Shown: one piece after another, positions 11,161 to 63,285 of the stretch
How the letters are laid out: each line of letters begins with the position of its first letter
How positions within the stretch are numbered: position 1 is the first letter of the stretch
DNA from: a virus
IMG/VR virus record: IMGVR_UViG_3300035698_012962
Location: 72,267-136,266 of that record
DNA: 64,000 bases
Direction: 5' to 3' (one strand)
The notes under the pieces: model-generated
The model's input: the letters and a program-made list of their open reading frames with translations, nothing else
The model's database searches: none
Told to the model about the DNA's origin: nothing
Position numbers and translations under genes: made by a program

Positions 11161-11191
11161 ATATCAAATCGTATTATATTACTAATATAAT

Positions 11192-11220
11192 AATATACAA
11201 AAAAATATATAAAATGTCAA
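11192..11220 (-). promoter_or_regulatory. Sigma70-type promoter for thyA
   Basis: Minus strand TTGACA-N17-TATATT. Confidence 0.75.
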
Positions 11221-11237
11221 ATTAAATATATAATAGT

Positions 11238-12561: not shown

Positions 12562-12750
12562 TTATTGAGTTGGTACTATTTCTATAATAGCCTTATTTGA
12601 ATCTGATAAGTGTTTTACTTCTTTTACTAATTTAAGTATTTCATCATTTGTTAAAACACGATTTCCTTGTGCTACATCCATAATGATACCTAATCGTTTT
12701 TCCATTGCGGAAATATTGTCTAATACTTTTTGTTGATATGCTAATTTCAT
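12562..12750 (-). CDS. Small hypothetical protein
   Basis: 62 aa; TACTTATA motif at 12772-12779 upstream. Confidence 0.55.
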   Translation of the reverse strand: MKLAYQQKVLDNISAMEKRLGIIMDVAQGNRVLTNDEILKLVKEVKHLSDSNKAIIEIVPTQ

Positions 12751-12793
12751 ATATATTTAGTTTGTTTGATTTATAAGTATAAGTATAGAAAAT

Positions 12794-12831
12794 AAAAAAA
12801 ATGGTGATAAGGCTATCAACCCTACCACCAT
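12794..12831 (-). terminator. Rho-independent terminator
   Basis: Minus strand ATGGTGGTAGGGT-TGATA-GCCTTATCACCAT (13-bp stem with G-U pairs) followed by T7. Confidence 0.85.
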
Positions 12832-12862
12832 ACCTAACCTAATATTTTAATTTCTACTTATA
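12794..12862 (-). ncRNA. Candidate ~70-nt small RNA
   Basis: Lies between a TTGACA-N17-TATATT promoter (12897-12869) and the terminator; no credible ORF; contains AUUAGGUUAGGU. Confidence 0.5.
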
Positions 12863-12893
12863 ATATATAATATACGAAAAAATATACCAATTG

Positions 12894-13430
12894 TCAAATT
12901 AATATTATATTAATAAATGTTGAAACATCTATATCACTTTCTCTATAATAAACCTGTACTTGCATTGTATCACCTCTCATTGCAAATATTGGTGCAATTA
13001 ATCCTGAAAATTCACCACTATCTTTTGTGATGGAAACTGGATTAACAGTTGGTACTTCCATACCCTTAAATCCCTGTACATAAATAGTATCCACTGTTAC
13101 CCAAGTACCTGTTCTACGAATATATCTCCGTACTTCAATACCAAGAGAATCACCTAATACCCATTTATGTGAAGATTCCCATCCTAATTTTTTTCTTCTA
13201 TCTATTTGACCACCATCTTTTTCAATCATACCTTGGACACGATGAATGGTTTGGTTTGAATGTTCATTTAATTGAAGTTCATAGTAACCATTACTATCTT
13301 TGTTCAACCTACCGTCTAAATATATTTCATAATCAGGTAGATATTCTACATTAGATATATCATTGCAATTGGTAAATATAAATAAACTAATTCCTAGCCA
13401 CATCCATAAATACTTCATACTCCACTCCAT
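12894..13430 (-). CDS. Putative lipoprotein
   Basis: MKYLWMWLGISLFIFTNC signal ending in Cys; start possibly 13418. Confidence 0.6.
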   Translation of the reverse strand: MEWSMKYLWMWLGISLFIFTNCNDISNVEYLPDYEIYLDGRLNKDSNGYYELQLNEHSNQTIHRVQGMIEKDGGQIDRRKKLGWESSHKWVLGDSLGIEVRRYIRRTGTWVTVDTIYVQGFKGMEVPTVNPVSITKDSGEFSGLIAPIFAMRGDTMQVQVYYRESDIDVSTFINIILI

Positions 13431-13628
13431 TTATTATTATCGTTTTGGGGTTAGGTGCTTCCTTTTTCATTTTTAAATCATTATACTCCTCTTCTGTGAT
13501 CACTCTATATACAATTCTGTTTTCTATAGCACAGTCGATTACTATTAAATGGTCTTCTGCTAGTTCGTTTATTTCACCAGTATCCCATCTATCGAAAACT
13601 TCTTGTTTAAATTCTCTGTATGTTTGTG

Positions 13629-14336
13629 TCATGACGCCGAAACTCTATCTGAAGTAATAATTATATCAAAATATCTATCTACTAACATTCTATAATAGGT
13701 ATCGTTGGGTACTCCATAATTTCCAATTGACCACATATCATTAAACTCCACTACTACGTTTAGCTCATTTCTTAATATACCTACATCAATAATATATGTA
13801 GAAGGAAAATCTTTTTTATTTTCTTCTATTATATCCTCTATAAATAATCTATGTGGTATCTGAAAAAGATCTCCACTATAATTATGCATATCCTTAATTT
13901 TATTTTTATGTACGTACACGCGTACATACGTATCATCGGATATATTTGCTATAGAAGAATACACCATCTCATCAATAACAAATCCAGTAAATGATTTCAA
14001 TTCAGTTGGTAATGGTTTAATAAAATACTTACCACCTGCCTTTACTCTATTCTTTACTTCTCCTAATGTTAGAATTTCACTAAATCTATCAGAGTTTCTA
14101 GGTAATTGAATACAATCAAGTGTTATTCCAACTCGTCTAAATACCTCAGTCATAAACTCAACAGAACCTACGAATAAATTATTATCTATTACTAAATCAT
14201 ATTTACCTTCCTTTACTTCATCAAAAGTAACTAATTTATATTTTAATACACCACTATCAAACGCTCCATAAAGAGCACTTGCAGCATCAAAGTGATGAGG
14301 TAGTATTCCATAATGGGATTTTTGAATAAATATCAT
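13629..14336 (-). CDS. ATP-grasp domain protein (R2K/DUF4343-like)
   Basis: FVGSVEF, FIKP...K.FTG, IDVG...VVEFNDMWSIGNYG. Confidence 0.7.
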   Translation of the reverse strand: MIFIQKSHYGILPHHFDAASALYGAFDSGVLKYKLVTFDEVKEGKYDLVIDNNLFVGSVEFMTEVFRRVGITLDCIQLPRNSDRFSEILTLGEVKNRVKAGGKYFIKPLPTELKSFTGFVIDEMVYSSIANISDDTYVRVYVHKNKIKDMHNYSGDLFQIPHRLFIEDIIEENKKDFPSTYIIDVGILRNELNVVVEFNDMWSIGNYGVPNDTYYRMLVDRYFDIIITSDRVSAS

Positions 14337-14341
14337 ATTTG

Positions 14342-15738
14342 TTAAACTTTAAGTAATGGATCAACTTTCTTTTCTAACTTCTTTAATTCTTCATAAATTT
14401 CATTGGTGAAGTATCCATAAATCCGTAACGTTCCATATTTCTCTTTTACATCATTAATAAGGATACCTTTTGCAAGTTTTCTATGGAGTTTATGCGCCCA
14501 CCACCATCTGACCCTTACAATAGAATTATCATTTCCTACGAGGTGTAGTAATCTTAAAACTGTTTTAGGACACCACTTTGATCTCATTTGGGAATCTACA
14601 TATTCAAAAAATGTATCTATATACTCATATCCTTCTGTTCCTTCTCTGAACAGATTGTATCCATATCCCATATATACCCATCTTCTTTGTTTGCCAGGGA
14701 AGATTGTATTCCAGAATGTTTTTGGTGTTAATTTATTAAAATAATATTTCTTTTTTTTGTTCATTTATCTATTGTAATACTCTTCGTAAGGTTTTTAATA
14801 CGGTATTTAGCTCTTGAAGTTTTCTATAAGAATTATATTTCATTTCAAAGAGATTATGGTATTGATCTGAATTCAGAAACTCTAATAATTCTTTACGGGT
14901 TTTGATCGTTTGAATTTCTTCTTCAATCTTTCTATATTCTTCAAAAAACTTATTAGAATATTCTATTTTTTTCGAGGTATCATATATTAAGAAGCCCGCC
15001 ATTACCCCGAATAGACTACCCACCGTTAATGCTAACAAAAACAGATCCGGATTGTTATAATACATTACACTGAAAAATAGTAAGAAAATAAATAGAAACA
15101 TATAAATAGATAACTTCGATGGAGAAGTGTTTTCAATTTTTCTAATAAATTCATATATTTTTTATCTATAAAGGGTTACAAAACTTCCAAAGTATTTATC
15201 GAACGTATCTACTAAGTGATCGTAACCACTTTCAGTCATTTCTTTTTGAACAGTTTCCCAATCTAACTCTAATTGATCAGCAAATCGCTTTGCCTTACCT
15301 AAAAGAGAATATGCATTCCCCTCTGGCCCAGTTAAATCAATTTCAATTCGTCTATTTTCGATTTCTTTTTTTGATTTTATCATACTAACTCTGATTTTGG
15401 GTTTGTTTTTTAATTGCTTCTTCTAACAGTTGTTTTTTATACATCATAATTCTTGGTCGATTCTTTTTACCTATCGGTCGTTGCCAGTAATCTATTTGTT
15501 TTGGGGTTAAAAACCCTCTTTTCATATAAAACTTTGCCATTGAAGTTCCAATCTCACCATGGGCACCTGTGAATCCAATACCGTTATTTCTGTTAGTGGT
15601 TTCGTAGATTTGTTCTTCTCTGGTCTGTCGATTGAATAAATGAACAAGAGCCTTACCAACTGCGTGAACTCTCATTGGTTCTTTACTCGTCAATACCGCC
15701 TCAATTTGTTCAATTAACTTTTTTTTATCAACTTTCAT
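14342..15738 (-). CDS. Four hypothetical proteins (14342..14764, 14769..15101, 15162..15383, 15385..15738)
   Basis: Co-oriented ORFs below the promoter at 15806; motifs KEKYGTLRIY and IDLTGPEGNA recalled as common in phage proteins. Confidence 0.65.
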
Positions 15739-15978
15739 AATAATTAGGTTAAGTTGTTGTTCTCATTCAACACCAGTAATATAGTGTATAGTATGATAAA
15801 AGTCAAGGATTATTTCACTCTTCGGAAATATTTACTAATGACGAGTATACTTCCTCACTCATTTGATTTATTAAATCTGAAATTTCATCTACTGATAGTT
15901 TATGATGATTGGATAGAGTTACATCTACCTCGATTTCACATTTATCTTCTATATCAAAATTAAATACGTAAGATTGTC

Positions 15979-25241: not shown

Positions 25242-26449
25242 TATCCTTTTTCTGTTTTAATTTTTTTAATGTGTACTCTAACTGGTCTACAATTTGATTA
25301 TAGAATTTAGGAAATTCATCTCTTATTCGTTCCATTTCTCCATTAAATGGATTAACATCTATTACTGTATTTCCAATGTGAACATATACAGTTTTGTCAT
25401 CAGCGTGTCTTGTTCTATGAACTTTGGTTTGTGCTAGTGCATAATCAAACCGATCCATTTTACCTTTAGATATGTACTTGTCTATATCTTCTACAAATTC
25501 GACGGGGTTATCTTCTATTTCATGCCACCTATCGTTATATACTGTAATTGTTGTTAAGAATCCCATAATTATTTTAATATTTTATTGTTGTTTTCTTGCT
25601 TCTATAATTTTGGGAAGATGAGTATTAATATTATTAGTTATCCCATCTTTCTTCCACCTAACATTATTTTGTATATGTAGTTGTTTTAGCTTGTATCTTA
25701 ATCTGTTGTATAGTGATGGTGTCTGTGGCATGATGTATTTATTATTTAGAAATTGTAGTCGTGGAACTTATACGGTTTCTCAGTTGGTTGAAATACATTA
25801 TATCCTGCTCCCCAATCATACACTTCATTGTATATTCTGGTTTGAGTTGTATCATCCCATCCTTTAAATATCTTTCTTGGATTTTTCTTTTTCCTTAGTC
25901 TCACAGTCTTACCATTTGGGTTACTCTCATAAAAGTATCTCTGTGATCGTTGGTTGGAACAATGGGCGGCAAACCCACCAATATGAAAATCAGGCTTCCA
26001 TGTTGGGTCAAGTTTGGATTTCATTGAACGTACTACAACAGTTTGTTCTGATATCACTTCAACCGTTTCATACGGGAAAGCATCAGAACCAATAGGGAGT
26101 GTAAAATATTCGGGTACTTCAACTTCTTTTCCTTTTTTTGTTTTCATTGTTTTCATAACTACTTAGATTAGGTTATCATTAACTCAACATTTATAATGTA
26201 GTAAGAATTTATATTAATGTCAAGTTCTATTTAATCTCTTAAATGATTTAAAGAAATCTGTGGTTCCATAATCGGATGAGATAATTCTGCTTTGGGGTGT
26301 TCCAATTTAGCTTCTTCAATTGAATCATAACTACCCAAAAAGGATTTTTTGGATTGTCCTGCTAACACTGAACTCTTATGATAATAACTCCAACCATATA
26401 CAACGTATTCAGTTTCCTTTTCTATAATTGTTTTATATAAGTAACTCAT
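25231..26449 (-). CDS. Three hypothetical proteins (25231..25566, 25746..26156, 26231..26449)
   Basis: The last two each lie directly below a conserved promoter-leader element. Confidence 0.65.
26166..26223 (-). promoter_or_regulatory. Conserved early promoter-leader element, copy 1
   Basis: TTGACA-N17-TACATT...GAGTTAATGATAACCTAATC. Confidence 0.85.
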
Positions 26450-33362: not shown

Positions 33363-36300
33363 TCATTTAATCACCATTGGTGTACCTTCCATGAACTGTA
33401 AATAACTCCCGTGTGAAGTTACGACCCACCAAAAAGTTTTCCCGATTTTCAGGGAACCTTTGATATCTGAAAATTCAAAAACTGCACATTCTTTGGTCGT
33501 ATTTTCTACAACATTAAATATTTCAGCTTCAAATGTTTTCGTATCATCATTAATTTCTGTGATATGACCTTTCCATATTAAACATACATCTTTATTCATT
33601 TAAGTATAGTTTTAAATTATTTAATCGGTGAAGAATTTGATTACCAAATCCGACCTGATCGTTTTGCTTGTTTTCCTATTTCTGATAACGTAGGGAATTC
33701 AAAAATATTCTCACATAGATTGCATTTAGCTTCCATGACTACTATAAATGGTGAAACACCCTTTCGTTTTTCTGTGTTTGTAACTGTAAAATCTACTGAT
33801 TCGCACTCGTCGCATTTTGTTATTCTTTCAGACATAATATTCATTGTGAAGTTTTATTATAATGCCCAGTTCTGATATAAGATATCCTAAGTGATTTTAA
33901 TAAATCAAGTTGTGCTTCACTACGCCATATCTGAAACTGTGCAAAATCTGAAGTGTTTCATCATCATAATCCAAATGTGGTTCGTATTGTTTGATAATTT
34001 CTTTTATCTTATCTCTACGTTCATCCAAATCTTTTATTAATGATGTAAAAAGTTCTTGTTGATTATTCATTTTCAATCAATTTTAATCCCTCCTCTAACG
34101 CCTTATCCATTGCTTCTTCATACGTTTTGTGTTTTGCTTTTGTTCTATCTAAATATTTCATTGTTTCTATTTGAGCCACAAACCGAAAAACATTTGTTCT
34201 TAAATAGTTAACAGGTAATATAGATATATGAATTTTATGTTCATCCCTCAACCATTTTTGAAGTAGTGATTGAGTTGGGGCGGGGTATAATATTTGCTTG
34301 TACCATCTTTCATCAACTTCATCTAATAAATCCCCATCTTCATTGTAATCGGTATAACCACCATATATGTTATAATCAAATCCCCGTTCTTTGGCTAATT
34401 TGGCTGTTTCAAAACTTATTAATTGATCATTCATCTTCCCATTCTATTTTAGGACATCTCTTTTGTTTTTTTAGCGCTAATATATTCCTTTGCCATCTCA
34501 ATTGTTTTAGTTGAATAAATTTACGGATGGTATATTTCAATTACTTTTTCCAACCTTTTTGAAAATAATTTACTGATATAATCCTTTGCCGAATAAATAG
34601 TATTAAATTGGATAGTAACGTAATTACCGGTTTTATTACATTCCAAATCCTTCCAAATACCTAACCAATTTTTTTGTTGTACTACATATTTTTTATCACT
34701 TATATTTAAACCAGTTCTGGATATTATTCGTGCGCTTTTATTCTTATTTGCTTTCATTTTTATTCTTATTTGCTTTCATTTTTATTCTTATTTGCTTTCA
34801 TTTATTTGAGTTTTACATCATTGGAATTTAAAATACAATCCATTACATAATTTCTAATTCCAATACCTCTAAATTCGTAGTTATTTGAATCTCGTGTATG
34901 TAGAGTATATTCTTTTGCACATATCTCTTTTTGGGTTTGGATTACATCATTCAATTTAGTGGTAGTACGCAACCATATCCACTCCATTAATTCTCTATCG
35001 GAATCAAGCGCATCCCAATTCATTCTTTCCACATGAATGTTATACCTTGCGACAATCAATGTAAGTATTTCAATCCACCACTGTATAGTATATGGTGTAG
35101 ATATTGTATAACGTTTTTTAACAGGTATATGTTTCATTGTAACATTTTTTCCATAGCCGCATTTACATTAACTAATACTTTTGTATAACCATCTTGCATT
35201 TCTGAAACATCTTCCCTTAATGATTTTACTTCTTTTTCCAGAATTTCATTTTTAACTAAAAGATCAGTAGTAAGTGCAGAAGTAATAGTAGCCTTATTTT
35301 CATTATCTTTAATATTATCATTAAATCTAATTAATGTACTATCTAAATGTATTAATAAATCTTGTAATGCATAGAACGTTTCTCCAACTCCTAATGTAAT
35401 TGGATTTTTGGTATCTAATTTTTCTATAAAATTTAACAGTTTATCAATTTCTTGCCTTACTTCAGTTGTGCTAATCATATAACATAGGTTAGTTTAAAAT
35501 GTTATTAATTATAATGTAAATATAAATTTAACTAATGTCAAATTATTTTAATATGATTTATGAAATGAATCTGTCCATACCCCGTCATCTATATCATCCA
35601 ACGCTAACGTATGTTTAATATACGGTTGCCTCTTAATAAGATACTCCCCCTCCATTTGTAATAACCATTGGTCTGCAGAATCTTCATTTACAAATTCTTT
35701 GGATTTTTTCATAAAAGTTGCTTTAATTTTTCCATTATCTAATACTTCTTTGTGTTGTTTAATTTTTGCCATAGTGTAACCCCATTTTATTTATTGAACC
35801 CATTTAATAATCATTAACTTTGGAAAAGAGAAAATACTACCTATAAATCCGAATGAAACATAATTTACTGAAAAGTTTCTATTACGTAAACTCCATATTA
35901 CAAACTCAATATCTATAGTTCGATATTTGTTTTCATCTATTATATGAACACAATATGTATATCCCAAATCTGCCATATTTCGAATCCTTTTATGTATAGA
36001 GAATATTAACTCATCACTCTCAGGCAATTCTTCAGGTTCATTATATATTTTTGCTATTTCCGATGCTTCTTTTGCTGTAATTAAATCTAAAGCCATTTAT
36101 CTTTCAAATTTGTTTTATTTACTTCTGTATATTCTGTAATCTCTATTTTATGAATATTAATATTTTCTTTTTTTAGTTCATCCATATCCGAATTTAATTT
36201 TGTGTATTCAATAATATCATTAATTAAAAAAGGTTTTGGATATGAATTAAATAATTTAACCTTACTAATATTCAGATCCCACTTAATTTCTTTATAAAAC

Positions 36301-41844: not shown

Positions 41845-43378
41845 CTCGTTCTACTACCAATTTAGTCTCAAATGCTGCAGGGAACTCGACAGTAGTTTGA
41901 TAATCTGTTACTGATTGTTCTATATCTCTATATTCGTAGTACTCATTAGTTTCATCACTACGAATAATTAATTGATCGTTGTGACCAACAGTTATTTGAA
42001 GTCCCATGTCATCCATGAGTTGTTCTAACTTTCTTACTTTCTGAGTAACTGGGTGTTCTTCTTTTAATTTATAATATGCCATAGAATTATCCCAACCCAG
42101 CTATTAATATTCCCACTCCAACCCAAAAAGGAATACCTGTTAAAAATCCTACGATTAAATGTGTTTTATATTTTTTAATATCTTCAAACATAATATTTCA
42201 ATTTAGGTTAATAGTTTTCTTTATCACTTTTATAATGTAATTATAAATTCAATGAATGTCAAATATTTAATTATCGTTTGAAAATTCCAATGGAAGAAGT
42301 GAAAGTTCATATCCATTTGAAATATAAAAACAACCTTCTATTTGAATCACATCCCCGATTGAGAATGATGAATGTTGTGTGGTTAATTCCCCACTTCTAA
42401 TTTTATCTGAAATCTTGGTTGGGTATGAACCAACGTTATGAGAAGTTATAATTGATCGAAAAACCTCATTATTGGAAGTTTCTGGTTGAAATTCAACTGC
42501 GGAAACTTTTTCATAATGTTTAATTGATGGAGAATGAAAAACAAACTCTACAAACTTACCATCTTCATCATACACCCTTTCAGTAATTTTACCTTTGAAG
42601 CGGAAATCAAAACCGGAAAAGTTTTCTTTAGGATAAAAAACGTTAACTTTCATTTTAGATTGGATTAGGTTATCATTAACTCAACACTTATAATGTAGTG
42701 ATTAATTTACTTAATGTCAAGTCCTATTTAAAGAAGTTATTAATTAAAATCTTCTACGGCTTCACCAGTGTGTTCCAACCATTCATCTGAATCACCATCC
42801 GCCCAAATTATATTTTCAGTATCCCAACATTCACTACATCCACCATTATCTGAATTGGATGCGTATGAATCATAAGCACCGCATGTTTTACAATAAGTCA
42901 TTTTATTGCCTCAATTTTTAAGTTGTAATTTTGATTTCTGATAATTCTCCCATTCTCTATATAATACCTCTATCATACCATCAGTGAGACCTTCGAAGTG
43001 AAGTTCCCCATCAAGATACATATTACTGAAATCATCAACTCTTGCGATTCCATTATGGATAGTGGAGTAGAATGAATCTTCTACAATGTATTCAAATTTT
43101 TCATCAACAGTTAATTCAGCTTTCATATCGGTATTGATTAGGTTATCATTAACTCACTTCTATAATGTAGTTAGAATTTATATTAATGTCAAGCACTATC
43201 TGTTTCTTTTTCTATCTTCTTTTGCTTTATTCTCTCTCCAATTTCTAAGTAATTGTTTTGAAATATCTAAGTGATCAGGTGGTACAACATAATCTTCACC
43301 TAATCTTCTAATTGCATATCCACAAGAATGGATGAATAGTGCTTCTTCATTATTTTTTAAATTTATTTTTTCCCACAT
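41837..43378 (-). CDS. Small hypothetical proteins (41837..42082, 42267..42653, 42911..43126, 43196..43378)
   Basis: Co-oriented; interspersed with promoters at 42262, 42720, 43192. Confidence 0.6.
42660..42720 (-). promoter_or_regulatory. Promoter-leader element, copy 3
   Basis: Identical over this span to the copies at 55294 and 56937. Confidence 0.9.
43136..43192 (-). promoter_or_regulatory. Promoter-leader element, copy 4
   Basis: TTGACA-N17-TACATT...GAGTTAATGATAACCTAATC. Confidence 0.85.
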
Positions 43379-47152: not shown

Positions 47153-50100
47153 CTAAGTGTGATATAATAACTTTAATATTTCTTTGATATTATTATTTGC
47201 AGATTCTAAATTTATCTCTCTTCCTTCTTTATTTTTTTCTGTGTGGAAAATCTGGCATAGTAGAACTGCTTCATGAACGTTTTCAACGAGATCTATCAGT
47301 TCGTTATTCTTCTTTTCATTATAGTTTGCAAATATATTAAAGTCTATATAGTCACCTATAGATGGGTGGTTGATTCTAATCTTATTCCACTCTTCTTTTT
47401 GTTTGGTTATATCTTTCATTTTATCTGCCACACTCCAGTTTCTCCTTTATTAGCTAATGAATGTTGTACCCATTCACTTACATTTTTCCATGTTTTATTT
47501 GCGGCTTTACATACGGCAATTGTATCTCCTTTCTTAAAGAAATGATCTTTATTCCAGTACCATTTAATTTCATTATGAAATGTATCACTATTCTCTATAT
47601 TAGGATGGCATAAGTAAGAAGAACCTTCTTCTAATTTTTGTAAAAATTCAGCTTTCATATTATAATGATTCTGTTTTGTGCCGTTCCGTAAAGTAGGCTA
47701 CATTAATTAATGGTATCCATTTACTTTTTCCACTTATGATAAGTCGTAATAATCCACCTTCTGTTTGAAAATGCTCTACATTATCTATGTACTCAGGCGT
47801 AGGTGAATCGGTGTAGTATAAAACTATATCATACGTTCTTTTAACTTTTGATTTCATAATTCGTTATTGTTTAATGTTTTAGGATCAGTTACGGAACCAT
47901 CATCTGGCCACTCAAATGGATATACTCCTCTTGATAGAAGGTACATCAAATCCTCAGTGTATCCTGCTGTATGTGGTAGATGTGTTTTTCTGAAACTTCC
48001 TATACCACCACTGTATAATTTATAAAATGATAGATTCCGAACTTCCTCATCCGTCATATCCTCAATCCTACGTGCGATTAGGGTGCAGTCATCAACGCCT
48101 TTGCTTTCATAAAATGTGCCTAAGTCTATTGTGTGATTTCTCGGATGAATACCAAAAAACACTTCATCTTTCAATCCAAGAATAGTCGATACTTGAACTT
48201 TAAACATCCCATTTGCAAAAAGGTGTGGTACTTCTTTCCAGTTTTTCATTTTCTTATTGGTTTTTAATTCTAGTGTCTTTACAAACTTGCATTAATGTAC
48301 GTTGTACCTGTTCGATTGCATCTGAATCCTTATAGTACCAATTATGTAATGTATCCACCGTGTGGTACGAACCAGTAGGTTTTAATGCCCATCTTTCAAT
48401 ATCAATCAACGATTCTAACATTCGTTCATAATTCTTTGCTATCTTAACATCAACAGGATACGACAGACCATCTATCTCAATATACGATTTTTTAGACGGA
48501 TCGTTTATTTCTATTTTTGGTTTATATATTTTCATACAATATTCGGTTTTGTGTTTTCTACTATCTCCATTGCCTTATGAAAACAAGATAAAATTAAAAG
48601 TTCATTATCCTTAAAAACCTCATTATCAGGTTTGTCCAATGACTTAACATACTTCTTTATTTTCTTTAAAATCATATCCGTTCTATCCTCACTTACTACA
48701 CGAGCATATCCTTTCATAATTGTTATAATTTTTCGTGGAACCAATGGGTATTTTCAATCAGGTCAGCTATTACAAAAATGAGTGATACTGGGCCGGACAG
48801 TCCGGCTGAAATTAACTCCATTATATATTGGATTCGTGTTATATTTGTTGTGTTTCTGTGTACGATTATACCACAGAGTACTCCTATAAAGAGCCAAGTT
48901 GATGTAAGAATATAGATTGTCATAGTGATTGTGTTATTAGATTTATATGAGTTTAAAACCCATAGTGATTTTCAACTTCTGTTTTATATTCTTTACTACT
49001 ATCATTATCAGTTTCAACCAACCGATCAATAATTTCAACTAGCTGATCAACATATACTTCATTGGTTTCAGATACTAAGTTGTAGTGAGAATTTCGAATT
49101 TCAACATTAAACAAATCCGGAACTCTATTATAAGTGATATCGACAATTCCTTTATGTTTGAATCCTTGCACCTTAAAGGTAAGTGCCTTATTAAAAAAAT
49201 TAGTGAAATTATGTGCTCCCCATGACCATACTACTGGCCCAGAAAAGAGATTTGATAATTGTTGAACATCAAATTCATCTTTGTTTTGAACGTATTCGTT
49301 GAATTTTATTTTACTCATTTGTTTGTTGATTAGGTTATCATTAACTCAATACTATAATGTATTAATAATATTTATCAATGTCAAATATATTTATCAATTA
49401 ATTGTTGTAGTTAAAATGTTGCATTACAATTTGAACAAGGGCAAGATATATAACGAACACATGGCTCACCACGATTGGTAATACCTGTTCCATTGCACTT
49501 AGGGCATTGATAATGCATACATTGTTGGTTATCATCCTTACCCATAAATCGTTTTGGAACATTAAATATTTTACTCAATTCATTTATCTGTTCCTTATAA
49601 TCTTCTTGATTGTTATTCCTATTCATTTTTTTCAATTTTTGTATTAATTTTTTATCTTCGTCACTCAATGGAGCCTTAAAAGTTAATGGAACCATAGTCT
49701 CATGTCTTCCATTTAAGAAAAATTCTACTGTTATTTGTACTCTATTCACATATTTTATATAATGAACTCCAATTTCTTGGGTATCCTTTATATCAATTGC
49801 AAAAGTGATTTTATCATCACTATCTAATTTTCTTTCTATTTTCTTTCGTACTTTTTTAAGAAGCTTCTCTAATCCACCATTAAAGGTTTTATGATCTAAA
49901 TCTAAACGATCAAGAACTTTCCATATTATGTGTTTTTTGTCTTTTTGGCTAAGTTCTTTTCTTCTTAATAGTTCTTTAAATTTACTCATATCTAGAACTC
50001 ATAAACTCTACTATATGTTTCATACAATTTTGTTTGATGATCGTTTGTTGGTGTGTATACTCTTCAAACTGTTTACAAATAGATTCCAACTCTTCTATAG

Positions 50101-54200: not shown

Positions 54201-55549
54201 TCTATCTCAGGCTTTTTCATAACTCAACATCCACATCTACCATATACCATTTATCACCATAGTACACTTCAATCTCAAATTCATCTGGGTGGTGTTCTCT
54301 AGCAGTAGTATCTCCATATGGATGATCAGTATAACCACCTCCTACTTGCTCCACACTTGCATCCAATTTAAATTCAGTAGGTATATGGGTGATTACCCAT
54401 TCTTCAAATCCATTATCACAGAGCCATTCAATCTGCTCCCATGTTCTTTCCAACGCTCCGATTCTGTTAAGGAACCAAACGTGATTTTCGTTATCAGTTG
54501 TAAATAAAATTTCTCTCATTTTTACCTGTTTTTTATTTGTTTTATATATTCATTGATTTCAGTTTCATCTGTAATTCGCTCAGTACGACTTGGCTTCGCA
54601 CCATAATATTCTTCATAAAAGAAATACTCACCGTTTTCTATTTCATACCAAACATCTCTATATGTGTAGTCACCACCGTATGTATCAACAACTTGCCCTT
54701 CTTCTATATAGTTCATTTTATCTCTGGTGAGTAGTTGTTTCGTATCCAATCTTTAACCGCTTCAAATGCTTTAACTGTTTCGGTTTGGTCTGAAGTTGGT
54801 ACGAATCTATACCATTGTATTCAATCATAAAATTCTTGATCATCTAATCGTTTATTTGCTTTTTCTAATTCTTTATTCATAATGCTGTTGAATTATTTGA
54901 ATGATCGTATATATGGTTTTTTCATTTCCCTTCTGATATCACCTATTCTATTATTCATGTCATCAATAGTTTCAGTTCTGATGTGTTCAAGATTTTGTTT
55001 GATGGTTTTCTTTTCACCATCTGTTAGGTCACCAAAGCAACCCCATGAATCTAATAGGTCAAATGTTCTTTCTACTTGTAGTTGTGAATTTGTCATTTTT
55101 CGTTTGATTAGTAGTTACTGATTTCTGCGATCATCTCTTTTGCGTTCTTACGTGCTACGGAAGTATCGTATTGATTTGGATAGTGATTTTTCAAATATCT
55201 CATCACATCTCTTACAGTTACTTTAGATGATTCCGCGATGGCTTGTCTGATTTTCATTTCGGAGAGTTGTTCTTTTTTATTATTCATAACTACTTGGATT
55301 AGGTTATCATTAACTCAACACTTATAATGTAGTGATTAATTTACTTAATGTCAAGTTCCTTATTTAATTTTCTTGTTCATATCCAACCCATTCATACGCC
55401 CGTTCTCTTAGTAACTCTGGATGTTGGTTCGGATGTCTACCTACTAAGATTCCAAACAGTTCATTTGCATCTTCTTCGTTGTCGTGATCCATCTCCCATG
55501 AACGGAAGTTTGCTTTTAAATCATCAGTAAAATGTGATTGTGTTTTCAT
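51272..55549 (-). CDS. Cluster of about 13 small hypothetical early proteins
   Basis: Co-oriented ORFs with overlapping start/stop codons. Confidence 0.6.
52081..52260. repeat. 23-bp direct repeat (52081-52103, 52238-52260) flanking a small membrane gene
   Basis: tattatttattgttattgttttt twice; both adjacent genes end KNNNNK*. Confidence 0.9.
54713..54880 (-). pseudogene. Small gene with in-frame TGA at 54821-54823
   Basis: MNKELEKANKRLDDQEFYD*IQWYRFVP...AFEAVKDWIR...IK*; final TGA overlaps ATG 54716. Confidence 0.6.
55294..55379. repeat. 86-bp direct repeat A (promoter-leader copy 7 plus EQEN* gene end)
   Basis: Identical to 56937-57022. Confidence 0.95.
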
Positions 55550-55594
55550 AATTGTTTTATTTAAGTGAATCCTGTTTTGAAATTGGTTTTTACT

Positions 55595-56209
55595 TTAGAA
55601 TAATTTGCTATTGTCGAATCCTATTTCTTCATTGTCTCCTATTACGACACCATCTCCGATTTTGGAATTGTATCCTATTTCGGTATAATCTCCTATTACG
55701 ACACCATCCCCTATTTCGCTATAGGCTCCTATTTCTGAATCGTCTCCTATTACGACACCATCCCCTATTTCGCTATAGGCTCCTATTTCTGAATCGTCTC
55801 CTATTTTCGAGTGACCTCCTATTAAGGCATTGGTTCCTATTTCGCTATAGGCTCCTATTGTGGAACCGTATCCTATTGTGGAACCGTAGCCTATTTTGGC
55901 ATTATCTCCTATTTTCGAGCGCCATCCTATTTTCGAGCGGCATCCTATTTTCGAGCGCCATCCTATTTTCGAATTATCTCCTATTACGACACCATCTCCG
56001 ATTTCGCTATAGGCTCCTATTTTAACATTGGCTCCTATTGCGGTATATTTTCCTATTTCTGCATTGTCTCCTATTTTAACATGATTTTCAATTACGACCC
56101 CATAATATATTTTTATATTCCTTTCTTGGAACTCCTCTTTCAATTCAGATAAGTCATTGTATTTGAAAGAAGTCCATTCATCTTTAGTTTTCAGGTATAA
56201 TGTTTTCAT
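55595..56209 (-). CDS. Hexapeptide-repeat (left-handed beta-helix) protein, paralogue 1
   Basis: Tandem IGxxxx repeats after MKTLYLKTKDEWTSFKY. Confidence 0.85.
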   Translation of the reverse strand: MKTLYLKTKDEWTSFKYNDLSELKEEFQERNIKIYYGVVIENHVKIGDNAEIGKYTAIGANVKIGAYSEIGDGVVIGDNSKIGWRSKIGCRSKIGWRSKIGDNAKIGYGSTIGYGSTIGAYSEIGTNALIGGHSKIGDDSEIGAYSEIGDGVVIGDDSEIGAYSEIGDGVVIGDYTEIGYNSKIGDGVVIGDNEEIGFDNSKLF

Positions 56210-56216
56210 AATTGTT

Positions 56217-56930
56217 TTATTTAAGTGAATTTTCTAATTCCGAATTGGGTTCTATTTCTGCATTGGTTCCTATTTCGGCTCTGTCTCCTATTGTGGAACC
56301 GTATCCTATTGTGGAACCGTAGCCTATTTCGCTATAGGCTCCTATTTCTGAATCGTCTCCTATTTTAACATTGGCTCCTATTGCGGTATATTTTCCTATT
56401 AAGGCATTATCTCCTATTTTAACATAGGCCCCTATTAAGGCATTGGTTCCTATTTCGCTATAGGCTCCTATTGTGGAACCGTATCCTATTGTGGAACCGT
56501 AGCCTATTTTGGCTCTATCTCCTATTTTCGAGTGACCTCCTATTTCGGCACCATCCCCTATTTCGCTATAGGCTCCTATTTCTGAATCGTCTCCTATTAC
56601 GACATATCTTCCTATTTCTGAATCGTCTCCTATTTTCGAATTAAATCCTATTTTAACATAGTCCCCTATTAAGGCATTATCTCCTATTTTAACATTGGCT
56701 CCTATTGCAGTATATTTTCCTATTTCTGCATTGTCTCCTATTTTAACATTGGCTCCTATTGCGGTATATTTTCCTATTTCTGCATTGTCTCCTATTTTAA
56801 CATGATTTTCAATTACGACCCTGTAATCTATTTTTATATTCCTTTCTTGGAACTCATCTTCCAGTTCAGATAACTCATTGTATTTGAAAGAAGTCCATTC
56901 ATCTTTGGTTTTTAAGTAAATTGTTTTCAT
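56217..56930 (-). CDS. Hexapeptide-repeat protein, paralogue 2
   Basis: Near-identical N-terminus; different repeat order; ends EPNSELENSLK. Confidence 0.85.
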   Translation of the reverse strand: MKTIYLKTKDEWTSFKYNELSELEDEFQERNIKIDYRVVIENHVKIGDNAEIGKYTAIGANVKIGDNAEIGKYTAIGANVKIGDNALIGDYVKIGFNSKIGDDSEIGRYVVIGDDSEIGAYSEIGDGAEIGGHSKIGDRAKIGYGSTIGYGSTIGAYSEIGTNALIGAYVKIGDNALIGKYTAIGANVKIGDDSEIGAYSEIGYGSTIGYGSTIGDRAEIGTNAEIEPNSELENSLK

Positions 56931-56936
56931 TTTGAT

Positions 56937-57022
56937 TTGGATTAGGTTATCATTAACTCAACACTTATAATGTAGTGATTAATTTACTTAATGTCAAGTT
57001 CCTTATTTAATTTTCTTGTTCA
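56937..57022. repeat. 86-bp direct repeat B (promoter-leader copy 8 plus EQEN* gene end)
   Basis: Identical to 55294-55379; supplies the last codons of the R-M gene. Confidence 0.95.
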
Positions 57023-62558: not shown

Positions 62559-62809
62559 CTCTGTATGGGTTTGTTTTGTATTGACTACTATAATATAACA
62601 GTTATATGAATCAATGTCAATTATTATTTGCGTTAGTCTATCAAAAGGTTTTTTCATCAGAAAAATTGGTGCCGATATGTGAAAGGGTTAGACACGGAAA
62701 AATGAAAAAAGTTTTCCGAACATTTACGTGAAACCAGTCCCCCCCATGTATTACACGGTGTACGATTGAGTATAGGATAGTGTCTATGATTGTGTATACG
62801 ATTCCGCGG

Positions 62810-63066
62810 TGAGCAGAGGAAGTTGCGTGAGTGTGCTGAGCAGAGGAAGTTGCGTGAGTGTGCTGAGTGGAGAAGTGGAGAAGTGGAGAAGTGGAGAAGT
62901 GGAGAAGTGGAGAAGTGGAGAAGTGGAGAAGTGGAGTGAGTGTGCTGAGTGGAGAAGTTGCGTGAGTGTGCTGAGCAGAGGAAGTGGAGTGAGTGGAGTG
63001 AGTGTGCTGAGCAGATGAAGTTGCGTGAGTGTGCTGAGTGGAGTGAGTGGAGTAGGTTGGGAGTTG
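62810..63066. repeat. Purine-rich compound tandem repeat
   Basis: 27-mer tgagcagaggaagttgcgtgagtgtgc x2, gtggagaa x8 (62867-62930), then shuffled sub-units. Confidence 0.95.
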
Positions 63067-63285
63067 TTAGTGTTCTATACTGATTGTGTCTATATAGTGT
63101 TGTAGTGTGTCTACTCTGTCGGTAAGATACTTGTTTCTTTCTTGTAGTTGTCTTATGTGTTCTTCTTGTTGTGTTATAGTGTCTAGTAGTATTTGCTTGT
63201 CTGTCACTTTTGCTTTCTTTATTCTAGTGTCTAGATCTTTAGCAGAATTATTATTTGTGTTGTCCGAATTCTTTTTGGATTTCAT
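63067..63285 (-). CDS. Hypothetical coiled-coil protein
   Basis: 72 aa ORF ending at the repeat block. Confidence 0.5.
   Translation of the reverse strand: MKSKKNSDNTNNNSAKDLDTRIKKAKVTDKQILLDTITQQEEHIRQLQERNKYLTDRVDTLQHYIDTISIEH

Follow-up and report, generated by a model that had tools for sequence, protein, structure and literature searches.

The window analysed here is the final 64 kb of a 136,266-bp IMG/VR virus record (G000), which is rated 63% complete and was compared with four relatives, G003, G005, G006, and G007. On its minus strand, at the end of a presumed early operon, lie a promoter designated P12897, a short segment predicted to be unpaired in RNA, and an intrinsic terminator. 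The segment carries a 12-nt stretch, termed here the anti-leader, whose complement stands just ahead of the start codon in the operon's own leader and, over 9 nt, in six further leaders. Tentatively—as something possible rather than probable—12843-12832 is read as an RNA segment that works as an anti-leader, whether in cis, in trans, or by both routes. The features concerned are as follows.

12867-12898, minus strand: promoter P12897, with a TTTG/TTGACA box (12898-12892), a TATATTAT box (12874-12867), and an extended TTTTCGTATATT
12832-12862, minus strand: predicted unpaired 5′ part (31 nt, by fold prediction) of a ~68-nt RNA
12832-12843, minus strand: anti-leader AUUAGGUUAGGU; its 9-nt core (12843-12835) complements UAACCUAAU, and all 12 nt pair with ACUUAACCUAAU
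12793-12831, minus strand: intrinsic terminator, a 14-bp hairpin (12831-12801) followed by T8 (12800-12793)
12894-15806, minus strand: presumed early operon, with promoter TTGACT-N17-TATATT (15806-15778), a leader, and seven open reading frames (ORFs) from 15738 to 12894
15743-15754, minus strand: leader motif ACUUAACCUAAU, 4 nt before ATG 15738; best predicted partner
26167-26175, minus strand: UAACCUAAU cassette leader, 10 nt before ATG 26156
42664-42672, minus strand: UAACCUAAU cassette leader, 10 nt before ATG 42653
43137-43145, minus strand: UAACCUAAU cassette leader, 10 nt before ATG 43126
49329-49337, minus strand: UAACCUAAU cassette leader, 10 nt before ATG 49318
55298-55306, minus strand: UAACCUAAU cassette leader, 10 nt before ATG 55287
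56941-56949, minus strand: UAACCUAAU cassette leader, 10 nt before ATG 56930

The promoter-terminator unit and its complements in early leaders

A first-pass annotation of this DNA had placed a TTGACA-N17-TATATT promoter at 12897-12869, and the promoter is indeed found there (TTGACA at 12897-12892, N17, TATATT at 12874-12869), scoring 11/12 in a promoter scan. Taken alone, the scan is uninformative in this DNA, with 44 promoter-like sites vs 41.7 expected. P12897 is credible because all four coding-strand copies of the extended box TTT[CT]GTATATT are intergenic (19/21 in G003) and because it matches the promoter consensus of the relatives; it is probably a real promoter. Across 38 nt, it shares 82% identity with the promoter of the thymidylate synthase gene, and a third, similar promoter lies in the other half of the record. 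The upstream promoter box contains the TGA (12896-12894) that ends the 178-aa gene, and promoter geometry would place the transcription start near 12862.

The strong terminator reported within ~70 nt of this promoter proved to be the 14-bp hairpin 12831-12801 with its T8 run. Its folding energy (-18.2 kcal/mol, z -3.26) was equalled by 1 of 200 shuffles. Across the entire 136-kb record, the coding strand has only four terminator-like sites between genes, this one included. Since the minus-strand ORFs are contiguous and no further minus-strand terminator-like site was found between 17000 and 10000, the hairpin would most simply close a ~3-kb operon starting at P15806, presumably transcribed as a single mRNA. 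The operon encodes a 235-aa R2K ATP-grasp protein, the remaining ORFs being without a family in Pfam. A consensus promoter firing into a terminator ~30 nt past its presumed start is unusual. In the window, no Rfam family passed its gathering score, and with the limit relaxed to E 1 the sole match within 12650-13000 was a chance snoRNA on the opposite strand. The unit was found in no relative.

The 9-mer ATTAGGTTA occurs eight times in the window vs 1.42 expected (0/100 shuffles reach eight), with seven copies on the plus strand and one on the minus strand (12843-12835), and it is missing from the remaining 72 kb of the record. Because the genes at the seven plus-strand sites all lie on the minus strand, these sites read UAACCUAAU in mRNA, and the seven coding-strand copies of UAACCUAAU in 136 kb are all in leaders (7/7), the outcome of the leader-versus-coding count that the first-pass annotation had suggested. 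Its claim that an exact complement lies close to start codons in seven leaders was borne out at every coordinate, and the 8-nt matches that it listed at 42203 and 60538 are real. Six of the sites belong to a repeated promoter-leader cassette (TTGACAtt-N15-TACATTATA...GAGTTAATGATAACCTAATC-N9-ATG), in which they precede the ATG by 10 nt, and the seventh precedes an ATG by 4 nt. The six are copies of one cassette and hence not independent; the 15743 site, with a different promoter (at 15806) and a different leader, counts as an independent occurrence, as do 42203, 60538, and an AACCTA at 35478.

Within the cassette, a 20-nt block is invariant in the six copies, while the promoter spacer and the final 9 nt before the ATG are variable. 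Cassette copies 26520 and 50907 keep GAGTTAATGATAAC and lose CTAAT; in leaders 42262 and 15806, the first half of the block is gone and TAACCTAA(T) remains. These complementary losses indicate that the block has two separable parts, and the candidate RNA complements the second part only. Searches of IMG/VR with an exact leader 15-mer gave 51 single matches, taken as chance, and a leader 19-mer with up to three mismatches was absent from all four relatives searched.

Pairing strength was estimated between the 31-nt unpaired part of the RNA and 173 start regions (-50 to +15). The best target is ATG 15738 (-13.9 kcal/mol, rank 1), which opens the first gene of the very operon ending at this terminator. 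Among the cassette leaders, ATG 26156 follows at rank 2 (-13.3 kcal/mol), then ATG 43126 and ATG 55287 (both -10.4 kcal/mol, ranks 11 and 12) and ATG 49318 (-9.9 kcal/mol, rank 15); ATG 42653 and ATG 56930 are weaker than -9.8 kcal/mol and rank below 16. Between AUUAGGUUAGGU and ACUUAACCUAAU of the 15738 leader, 12 bp can form, including one G-U (-12.9 kcal/mol), and the motif in that leader is predicted to be unpaired. The 3′ end of the presumed single transcript thus complements its own start-proximal region.

The leader motif and its complements in relatives

At the level of sequence, the second part of the block, AACC(C)TAA, is conserved well beyond this phage, distant relatives included. 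Intergenic DNA makes up 5-7% of each of the five genomes, and the motif is distributed as follows.

G000: 16 coding-strand copies, 9 intergenic
G003: 32 coding-strand copies, 11 intergenic
G006: 41 coding-strand copies, 9 intergenic
G007: 26 coding-strand copies, 6 intergenic
G005: 36 coding-strand copies, 5 intergenic

In G003 and G006, the motif stands 3 to 14 nt ahead of ATGs, whereas its distance from promoters varies widely; in the relatives, it is sometimes found within an operon or behind a hairpin. A short distance to the ATG combined with a variable distance to the promoter indicates a role at the RNA level linked to the start codon, against a DNA operator. In none of the four relatives was a promoter-terminator unit found that carries the complement of AACC(C)TAA. 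The first-pass proposal that the small RNA explains why the leader is conserved therefore fails on three counts: the invariant block is 20 nt long and the seed covers just 9; copies 26520 and 50907 lose the seed site while 42262 and 15806 do the reverse; and the relatives keep the motif without such a unit. Separately, TTAGGTT also serves as a variant of the upstream promoter box, with aTTAGGTTt replacing aTTTGGAAt (G003 2901; G006 7123 and 58626), so some intergenic anti-motif matches in the relatives are promoters and not anti-leaders.

Complements of leaders do occur at 3′ ends in the relatives. An unbiased scan of G003 for inverted matches of at least 12 nt between intergenic regions returned three pairs, two of which join a leader (AACCCTAAAACA, AACCCTAAAATA) to post-stop sequence at 228443 and 1385. 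A 403-aa AAA+ ATPase gene (AAA_5/CbbQ-like; G003 227239-228500) ends at the 228443 site, which stands just before a GC-rich hairpin and reads TTTTAGGGTTAATCAATTAC, the complement of both G003 leader blocks. GGTTAATCAATTA is found after the stop codon of this gene in G003, G005, and G006, and the G005 complement fits the G005 version of the leader, GTAATAATTGAT, and not the G003 version, GTAATTGA.

Eighty loci of the AAA+ gene were fetched, of which 58 were distinct and 18 of these had at least 71% protein identity. At these 18, a 40-nt stretch starting in the last codons complements the locus's own leader, in lineage-specific sequences such as AACCCTAAAA/TTTTAGGGTT, AACCTTAAAACT, AACCTTAAAAC, AACCCCTTAA, GATAACCC, TAACCCC, AGATAAACATTA, and GTAATAATTGAT. 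Across L285-L312, the complementary stretch begins in the last codons, extends ~30 nt beyond the stop, and is followed by a GC-rich hairpin. The match to the own leader is at least 7 nt in 13 of the 18 loci and only 5-6 nt in L291, L315, L296, L298, and L309; L321, just under the 71% cut and so outside the 18, has a weak match of 4 nt. Mean duplex energy is -15.2 kcal/mol for own pairs vs -12.0 kcal/mol for non-own pairs, with 9 of 20,000 permuted pairings reaching the own mean (Wilcoxon p = 0.010). These loci share history, so the statistics overstate their independence; there are still at least six different complementary pairs. The pattern looks like the signature of pairing between the 5′ and 3′ untranslated regions (UTRs), conserved in a phage gene.

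Nothing comparable was found in the 40-nt interval at 40 more distant AAA+ loci, where the own-vs-non-own test took in the first 40 nt after the stop, short of the hairpin loops, and was not significant (n = 40). By eye, the post-gene hairpins at distant loci L326-L356, in phages that use Shine-Dalgarno (SD) pairing, carry CU-rich loops (e.g., TTTCTCCTT and TTCCTTTCTTTTCC), and these loops complement AAGGAG/AAAGGAA before the gene's own start codon.

Phage, host type and proposed action

The phage is an uncultured T4-like phage with a G+C content of 31% and, by a crude gene call, 184 genes, 173 of them on the minus strand. In its major head protein, identity is 50.6% with Flavobacterium phage vB_FspM_immuto and 51.9% with Microcystis phage Mel-JY01, and there are matches to thousands of T4-type phages besides. 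Among relatives in IMG/VR, the nearest show 71% identity; the relative G003 is a complete record of 252,603 bp. Megablast against phages found no close relative. A search of IMG/VR and metagenomes for the 178-aa and 437-aa neighbours of the unit yielded one locus only (47% identity, no synteny, SD-type leaders), and a promoter pattern search returned 72 loci, all in unrelated SD-using phages. No tRNA was found.

A loose SD-like 4-mer is present upstream of just 29 of the 184 genes, and upstream regions are A-rich instead. Promoters in G003 take the form TTTG-N20-TAnnTTTG within tttTCGTATATTTGTA, which we take to be the Bacteroidota promoter type, and the TTGACA-N17-TATATT sites of the window have the same geometry (aaTTTGaca-N20-TAnnTTAT). 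This geometry points to a member of the Bacteroidota as the most likely host. In the phage group, host-type promoters read TTTG-N20-TAnnTT(T/A)(G/T) with an extended TTTCGTATATT box (window 11187-11224 and 12864-12901; ~29 sites in G003), and in this phage the corresponding boxes have become TTGACA (upstream) and TA(T/C)ATTAT (downstream). Bacteroidota ribosomes do not use SD pairing (PMC7797042, PMC6847099), and for this reason the means by which phages of such hosts secure and time translation are poorly understood.

The proposed action begins with the position of AUUAGGUUAGGU directly 5′ of the hairpin that ends operon 15806-12793. It could enter RNA by two routes: as the 3′ end of the ~3-kb operon mRNA, or in a ~68-nt RNA started at the internal promoter P12897 and using the same terminator, much like a small RNA derived from a 3′ UTR with its own promoter. 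In either form, the anti-leader would pair with the start-proximal motif, over 12 bp in the leader of the operon's own first gene and over 9 bp in the leaders of six cassettes. Placed 4 to 19 nt ahead of the AUG, the motif falls within the footprint of the 30S subunit, and its occlusion would lower translation initiation in a host unable to use SD pairing. The action would be in cis on the own operon, as in icaR of Staphylococcus aureus and in the relatives' AAA+ gene, and possibly also in trans on the six cassette leaders. The transcripts, their pairing in vivo, and the direction of the effect are what we infer from the sequences, the predicted fold, the complementarity, and the covariation observed at the other locus. 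A 3′-end element working on the transcript that carries it would fit this own-operon best target no less well than would a dedicated regulator acting in trans. The dispersed early regulon under a trans-acting RNA, as originally envisaged, keeps its promoter, its terminator, an unstructured seed, and a conserved motif near start codons; its statistics are marginal.

Small RNAs of the DapZ and MicL types derive from 3′ UTRs, arise from an internal promoter, and share the terminator of the mRNA. The candidate resembles them in having a promoter at the end of the upstream coding sequence, a short predicted RNA with a single-stranded seed, and the terminator of the parent mRNA; of what a trans-acting small RNA needs, a promoter of its own, an intrinsic terminator, and a predicted accessible seed are present in the sequence. 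Its targets, by contrast, would be the phage's own early leaders, and no use of Hfq is known in the host lineage. Many early mRNAs of T4 are shut down through a shared element of the ribosome-binding region by the translational repressor RegA and the endoribonuclease RegB, which are proteins, unlike the candidate RNA.

In icaR mRNA of S. aureus, a 3′-UTR motif blocks initiation by pairing with the ribosome-binding region of the mRNA that carries it (PMC3868564). The covarying pairs of own leader and 3′ end at the relatives' AAA+ gene fit this scheme, and so does the 12-bp match joining the two ends of operon 15806-12793. What differs is the non-SD target AACC(C)UAA in a type of host blind to SD, a presumed polycistronic transcript of ~3 kb, and an element with a probable promoter of its own. 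The c4 RNA of P1/P7 and the sar RNA of P22 are small phage RNAs that block translation around a ribosome-binding site, that of the ant mRNA in the case of c4 (PMC12197685). According to that review, each acts on one antirepressor gene in temperate phages, whereas the site considered here is common to as many as seven scattered leaders of a T4-like phage of virulent type. T4-type coliphages also carry PeSL cassettes, which are described as repeated intergenic units of a strong host-type promoter and a stem-loop terminator; they precede small ORFan genes, keep early transcription apart from late, and favour the shuffling of genes (PMC2839356). Their stem-loop lies upstream of, within, or just before the start site, so that no short RNA results (PMC2839356), whereas here it lies ~30 nt past the presumed start, and the repeated cassettes of the window carry a conserved leader and not a stem-loop. 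Identity with a PeSL cassette was rejected, the hairpin beginning 38 nt after the -10 box.

The components of the proposal—a small RNA or 3′-UTR element, anti-ribosome-binding-site pairing, and phage antisense regulators—are all of known kinds. What would be new is a non-SD, start-proximal target common to dispersed early leaders in a phage of an SD-blind host, and the recurrence in one lineage of covarying anti-leaders beside 3′ hairpins. If the reading is right, a phage RNA acts on the phage's own early leaders; no described case was found in the literature searched, including the available passages of reviews. A broader reading, that AACC(C)UAA is a phage-borne substitute for SD that drives early translation in SD-blind Bacteroidota hosts and is regulated by anti-leaders beside 3′ hairpins, seems unlikely. 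Were it true, anti-leaders would reside in mRNA 3′ ends in the relatives, and here also in a free ~68-nt RNA titrating a dispersed early regulon. A conserved start motif with covarying complements would give a testable handle on how such phages secure and time translation.

Competing explanations and neighbouring features

The anti-leader reading has its strongest competitor in ordinary genome architecture, according to which an insulating terminator separates the early operon 15806-12894 from a late unit and the 9-12-nt match is chance; this alternative carries the same weight as the anti-leader reading and is likewise short of probable. Directly after the T-run, and ahead of the 62-aa and 437-aa genes, stands a further feature.

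12772-12787, minus strand: late-type promoter motif TATACTTATACTTATA

All 11 copies of TATACTTATA in the record are intergenic, the motif standing ahead of structural genes, and all 17 copies of its G003 equivalent, TTATATTTAT, are intergenic, one of them at the homologous place. There, G003 has the same order of terminator, late-type motif, 59-aa gene, and 467-aa gene, from which it follows that the terminator separates an early from a late unit; three extra genes lie between the homologue of the 178-aa gene and the terminator. The general form (C)TTATA(C/T)TTATA, intergenic only (e.g., 12772-12787; upstream of 4391, 6689, and 40622; genome-wide in G003), is probably the late promoter of this phage group and is distinct from the T4 late promoter TATAAATA.

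On the chance reading, P12897 would be a normal host-type promoter that happens to stand ahead of the terminator, and it might be the relic of a cassette lost by recombination or might feed weak read-through. The last of the extra G003 genes before the terminator has its own promoter, so that loss of such a gene would leave a promoter adjoining the terminator, and promoter-stem-loop cassettes of the PeSL kind are reported to mediate gene shuffling in T4-type phages (PMC2839356). If the match in the window is chance, the unit is just a terminator beside a promoter, and the motif of the relatives and their 5′/3′ covariation still stand.

Several results weigh against the anti-leader and on the side of chance. 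Early/late separation is a sufficient ordinary reason for the terminator, and the homologous G003 site has neither a promoter upstream of its terminator nor an anti-leader. Four DNA runs gave one 1705-nt contig spanning 11308-13012 with zero differences, hence no sequence diversity. The first-pass annotation had conceded that chance was not excluded for so short a seed, and this caution was justified: just two intergenic 9-mers complement any part of the 25-nt leader block vs 2.6 expected from 300 shuffled blocks, and a single antisense copy genome-wide is the chance expectation (a reversed control pattern has 4 + 4 copies in the record). Of 300 shuffled 31-nt RNAs, 80% obtain a best target at least as good; the mean energy over the seven leaders is matched or bettered by 6.3% of them, or by 2.7% when scored relative to all targets. 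The leaders were expected to be the top targets, which holds for ranks 1 and 2 of 173, but the top 16 contain just five of the seven, and the cassette duplex is weak (9 bp, -8.9 kcal/mol). Pre-terminator segments compared with all upstream regions did no differently from a reversed control, owing to the dominance of AT-rich matches. Across the full set of operons in G000, G003, G005, and G006, own 5′/3′ pairs were no better than non-own pairs, in a test whose operon splitting cut operon 15806-12793, so that this pair was not included. The AAA+ gene was the top case in G003 and G005. Own-pairing is therefore not general, and the parallel in the relatives rests on one gene family, which is absent from this record; among cultured phages, it has no close homologue, the best being in Microcystis phage Mel-JY01 (56%).

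Within-genome support for pairing is marginal, at about the 0.03-0.06 level, and suggestive. Against chance stand the position of the match, within a 31-nt unpaired stretch beside one of just four intergenic terminators, and its best partner, the own-operon leader at rank 1 of 173. The latter is a 1-in-173 event, under a hypothesis framed after seeing the relatives. The relatives show what appears to be selected leader/anti-leader pairing beside 3′ hairpins, and a consensus promoter firing straight into a 14-bp terminator would be purposeless. It is the motif in distant relatives, the AAA+ covariation, and the rank-1 target on the own operon that raise the odds of a working anti-leader.

The three remaining readings are unlikely even when combined. 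One treats TAACCTAAT/ATTAGGTTA as an orientation-free protein-binding site past promoters, making 12897 an eighth regulated promoter and not a regulator. The spacing is in keeping with this: counted from the -10 box, the site starts after 19 nt in each of the six cassettes, after 23 nt for 42262, after 26 nt for 15806, and, inverted, after 25 nt for 12897. The first half of the leader block holds a short inverted repeat (GTTA-N4-TAAC). The site itself is asymmetric, however, and in the relatives it varies in promoter distance, keeps close to the ATG, and occurs inside operons with no promoter nearby (G003 1821; also G000 41450). Together with the AAA+ covariation of leader and 3′ end, which is of the base-pairing kind, this makes an operator improbable.

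Little probability attaches, likewise, to a termination checkpoint at which P12897 transcripts stop unless a phage factor permits read-through into the 62-aa and 437-aa genes, an arrangement that we would liken to lambda pR′-tR′-Q. The order of promoter, short leader, terminator, and genes would suit it, as would the hydrophobic N-terminus of the 437-aa product and its weak match to a holin family (E 9e-5), but no lysis family was found in Pfam. The downstream genes have their own late-type promoter past the terminator both here and in G003, the G003 terminator has no promoter upstream, and no alternative anti-terminator fold is predicted in the leader.

Least of all is a small membrane peptide to be expected from ATG 12831 and its 24-codon ORF (MVVGLIALSPFFLFSILILINQTN), with an AGGT-rich upstream stretch as ribosome site: the frame is open and hydrophobic, but an estimated ~14% of 24-codon frames are open at this base composition, its ATG lies within the 14-bp stem, the phage shows no SD use (the loose 4-mer in 29/184 genes), and the G003 site has no comparable ORF on reading its sequence. 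The first-pass statement that no credible ORF lies between promoter and terminator thus needs qualifying, in that this ORF (12831-12757) crosses the hairpin, its ATG being the first three stem bases, while the coding reading ranks low.

In the part of the record outside the window, the portal gene of G000 (L134 12742-15570, 942 aa) contains an HNH endonuclease domain in mid-protein (residues ~467-540), and two large ORFs beside the head gene (L134 117-1892 and L133 18738-20117) match homing or HNH endonucleases, which suggests invasion of the structural module by an intein or homing endonucleases. Two adjacent genes of the window, 55595-56209 and 56217-56930, both behind cassette promoters, contain a long run of 18-nt periodicity at 55567-56803 (43 registers of a 300-nt unit), which implies a 6-residue repeat protein. 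A G-rich repeat array with ~27-nt spacing (GAGGAAGTTGCGTGAGTGTGCTGAGCAGAG and GTGGAGAA runs) occupies 62789-63070 on the plus strand, in a stretch devoid of minus-strand ORFs of at least 50 codons, and may be an origin or iteron region.

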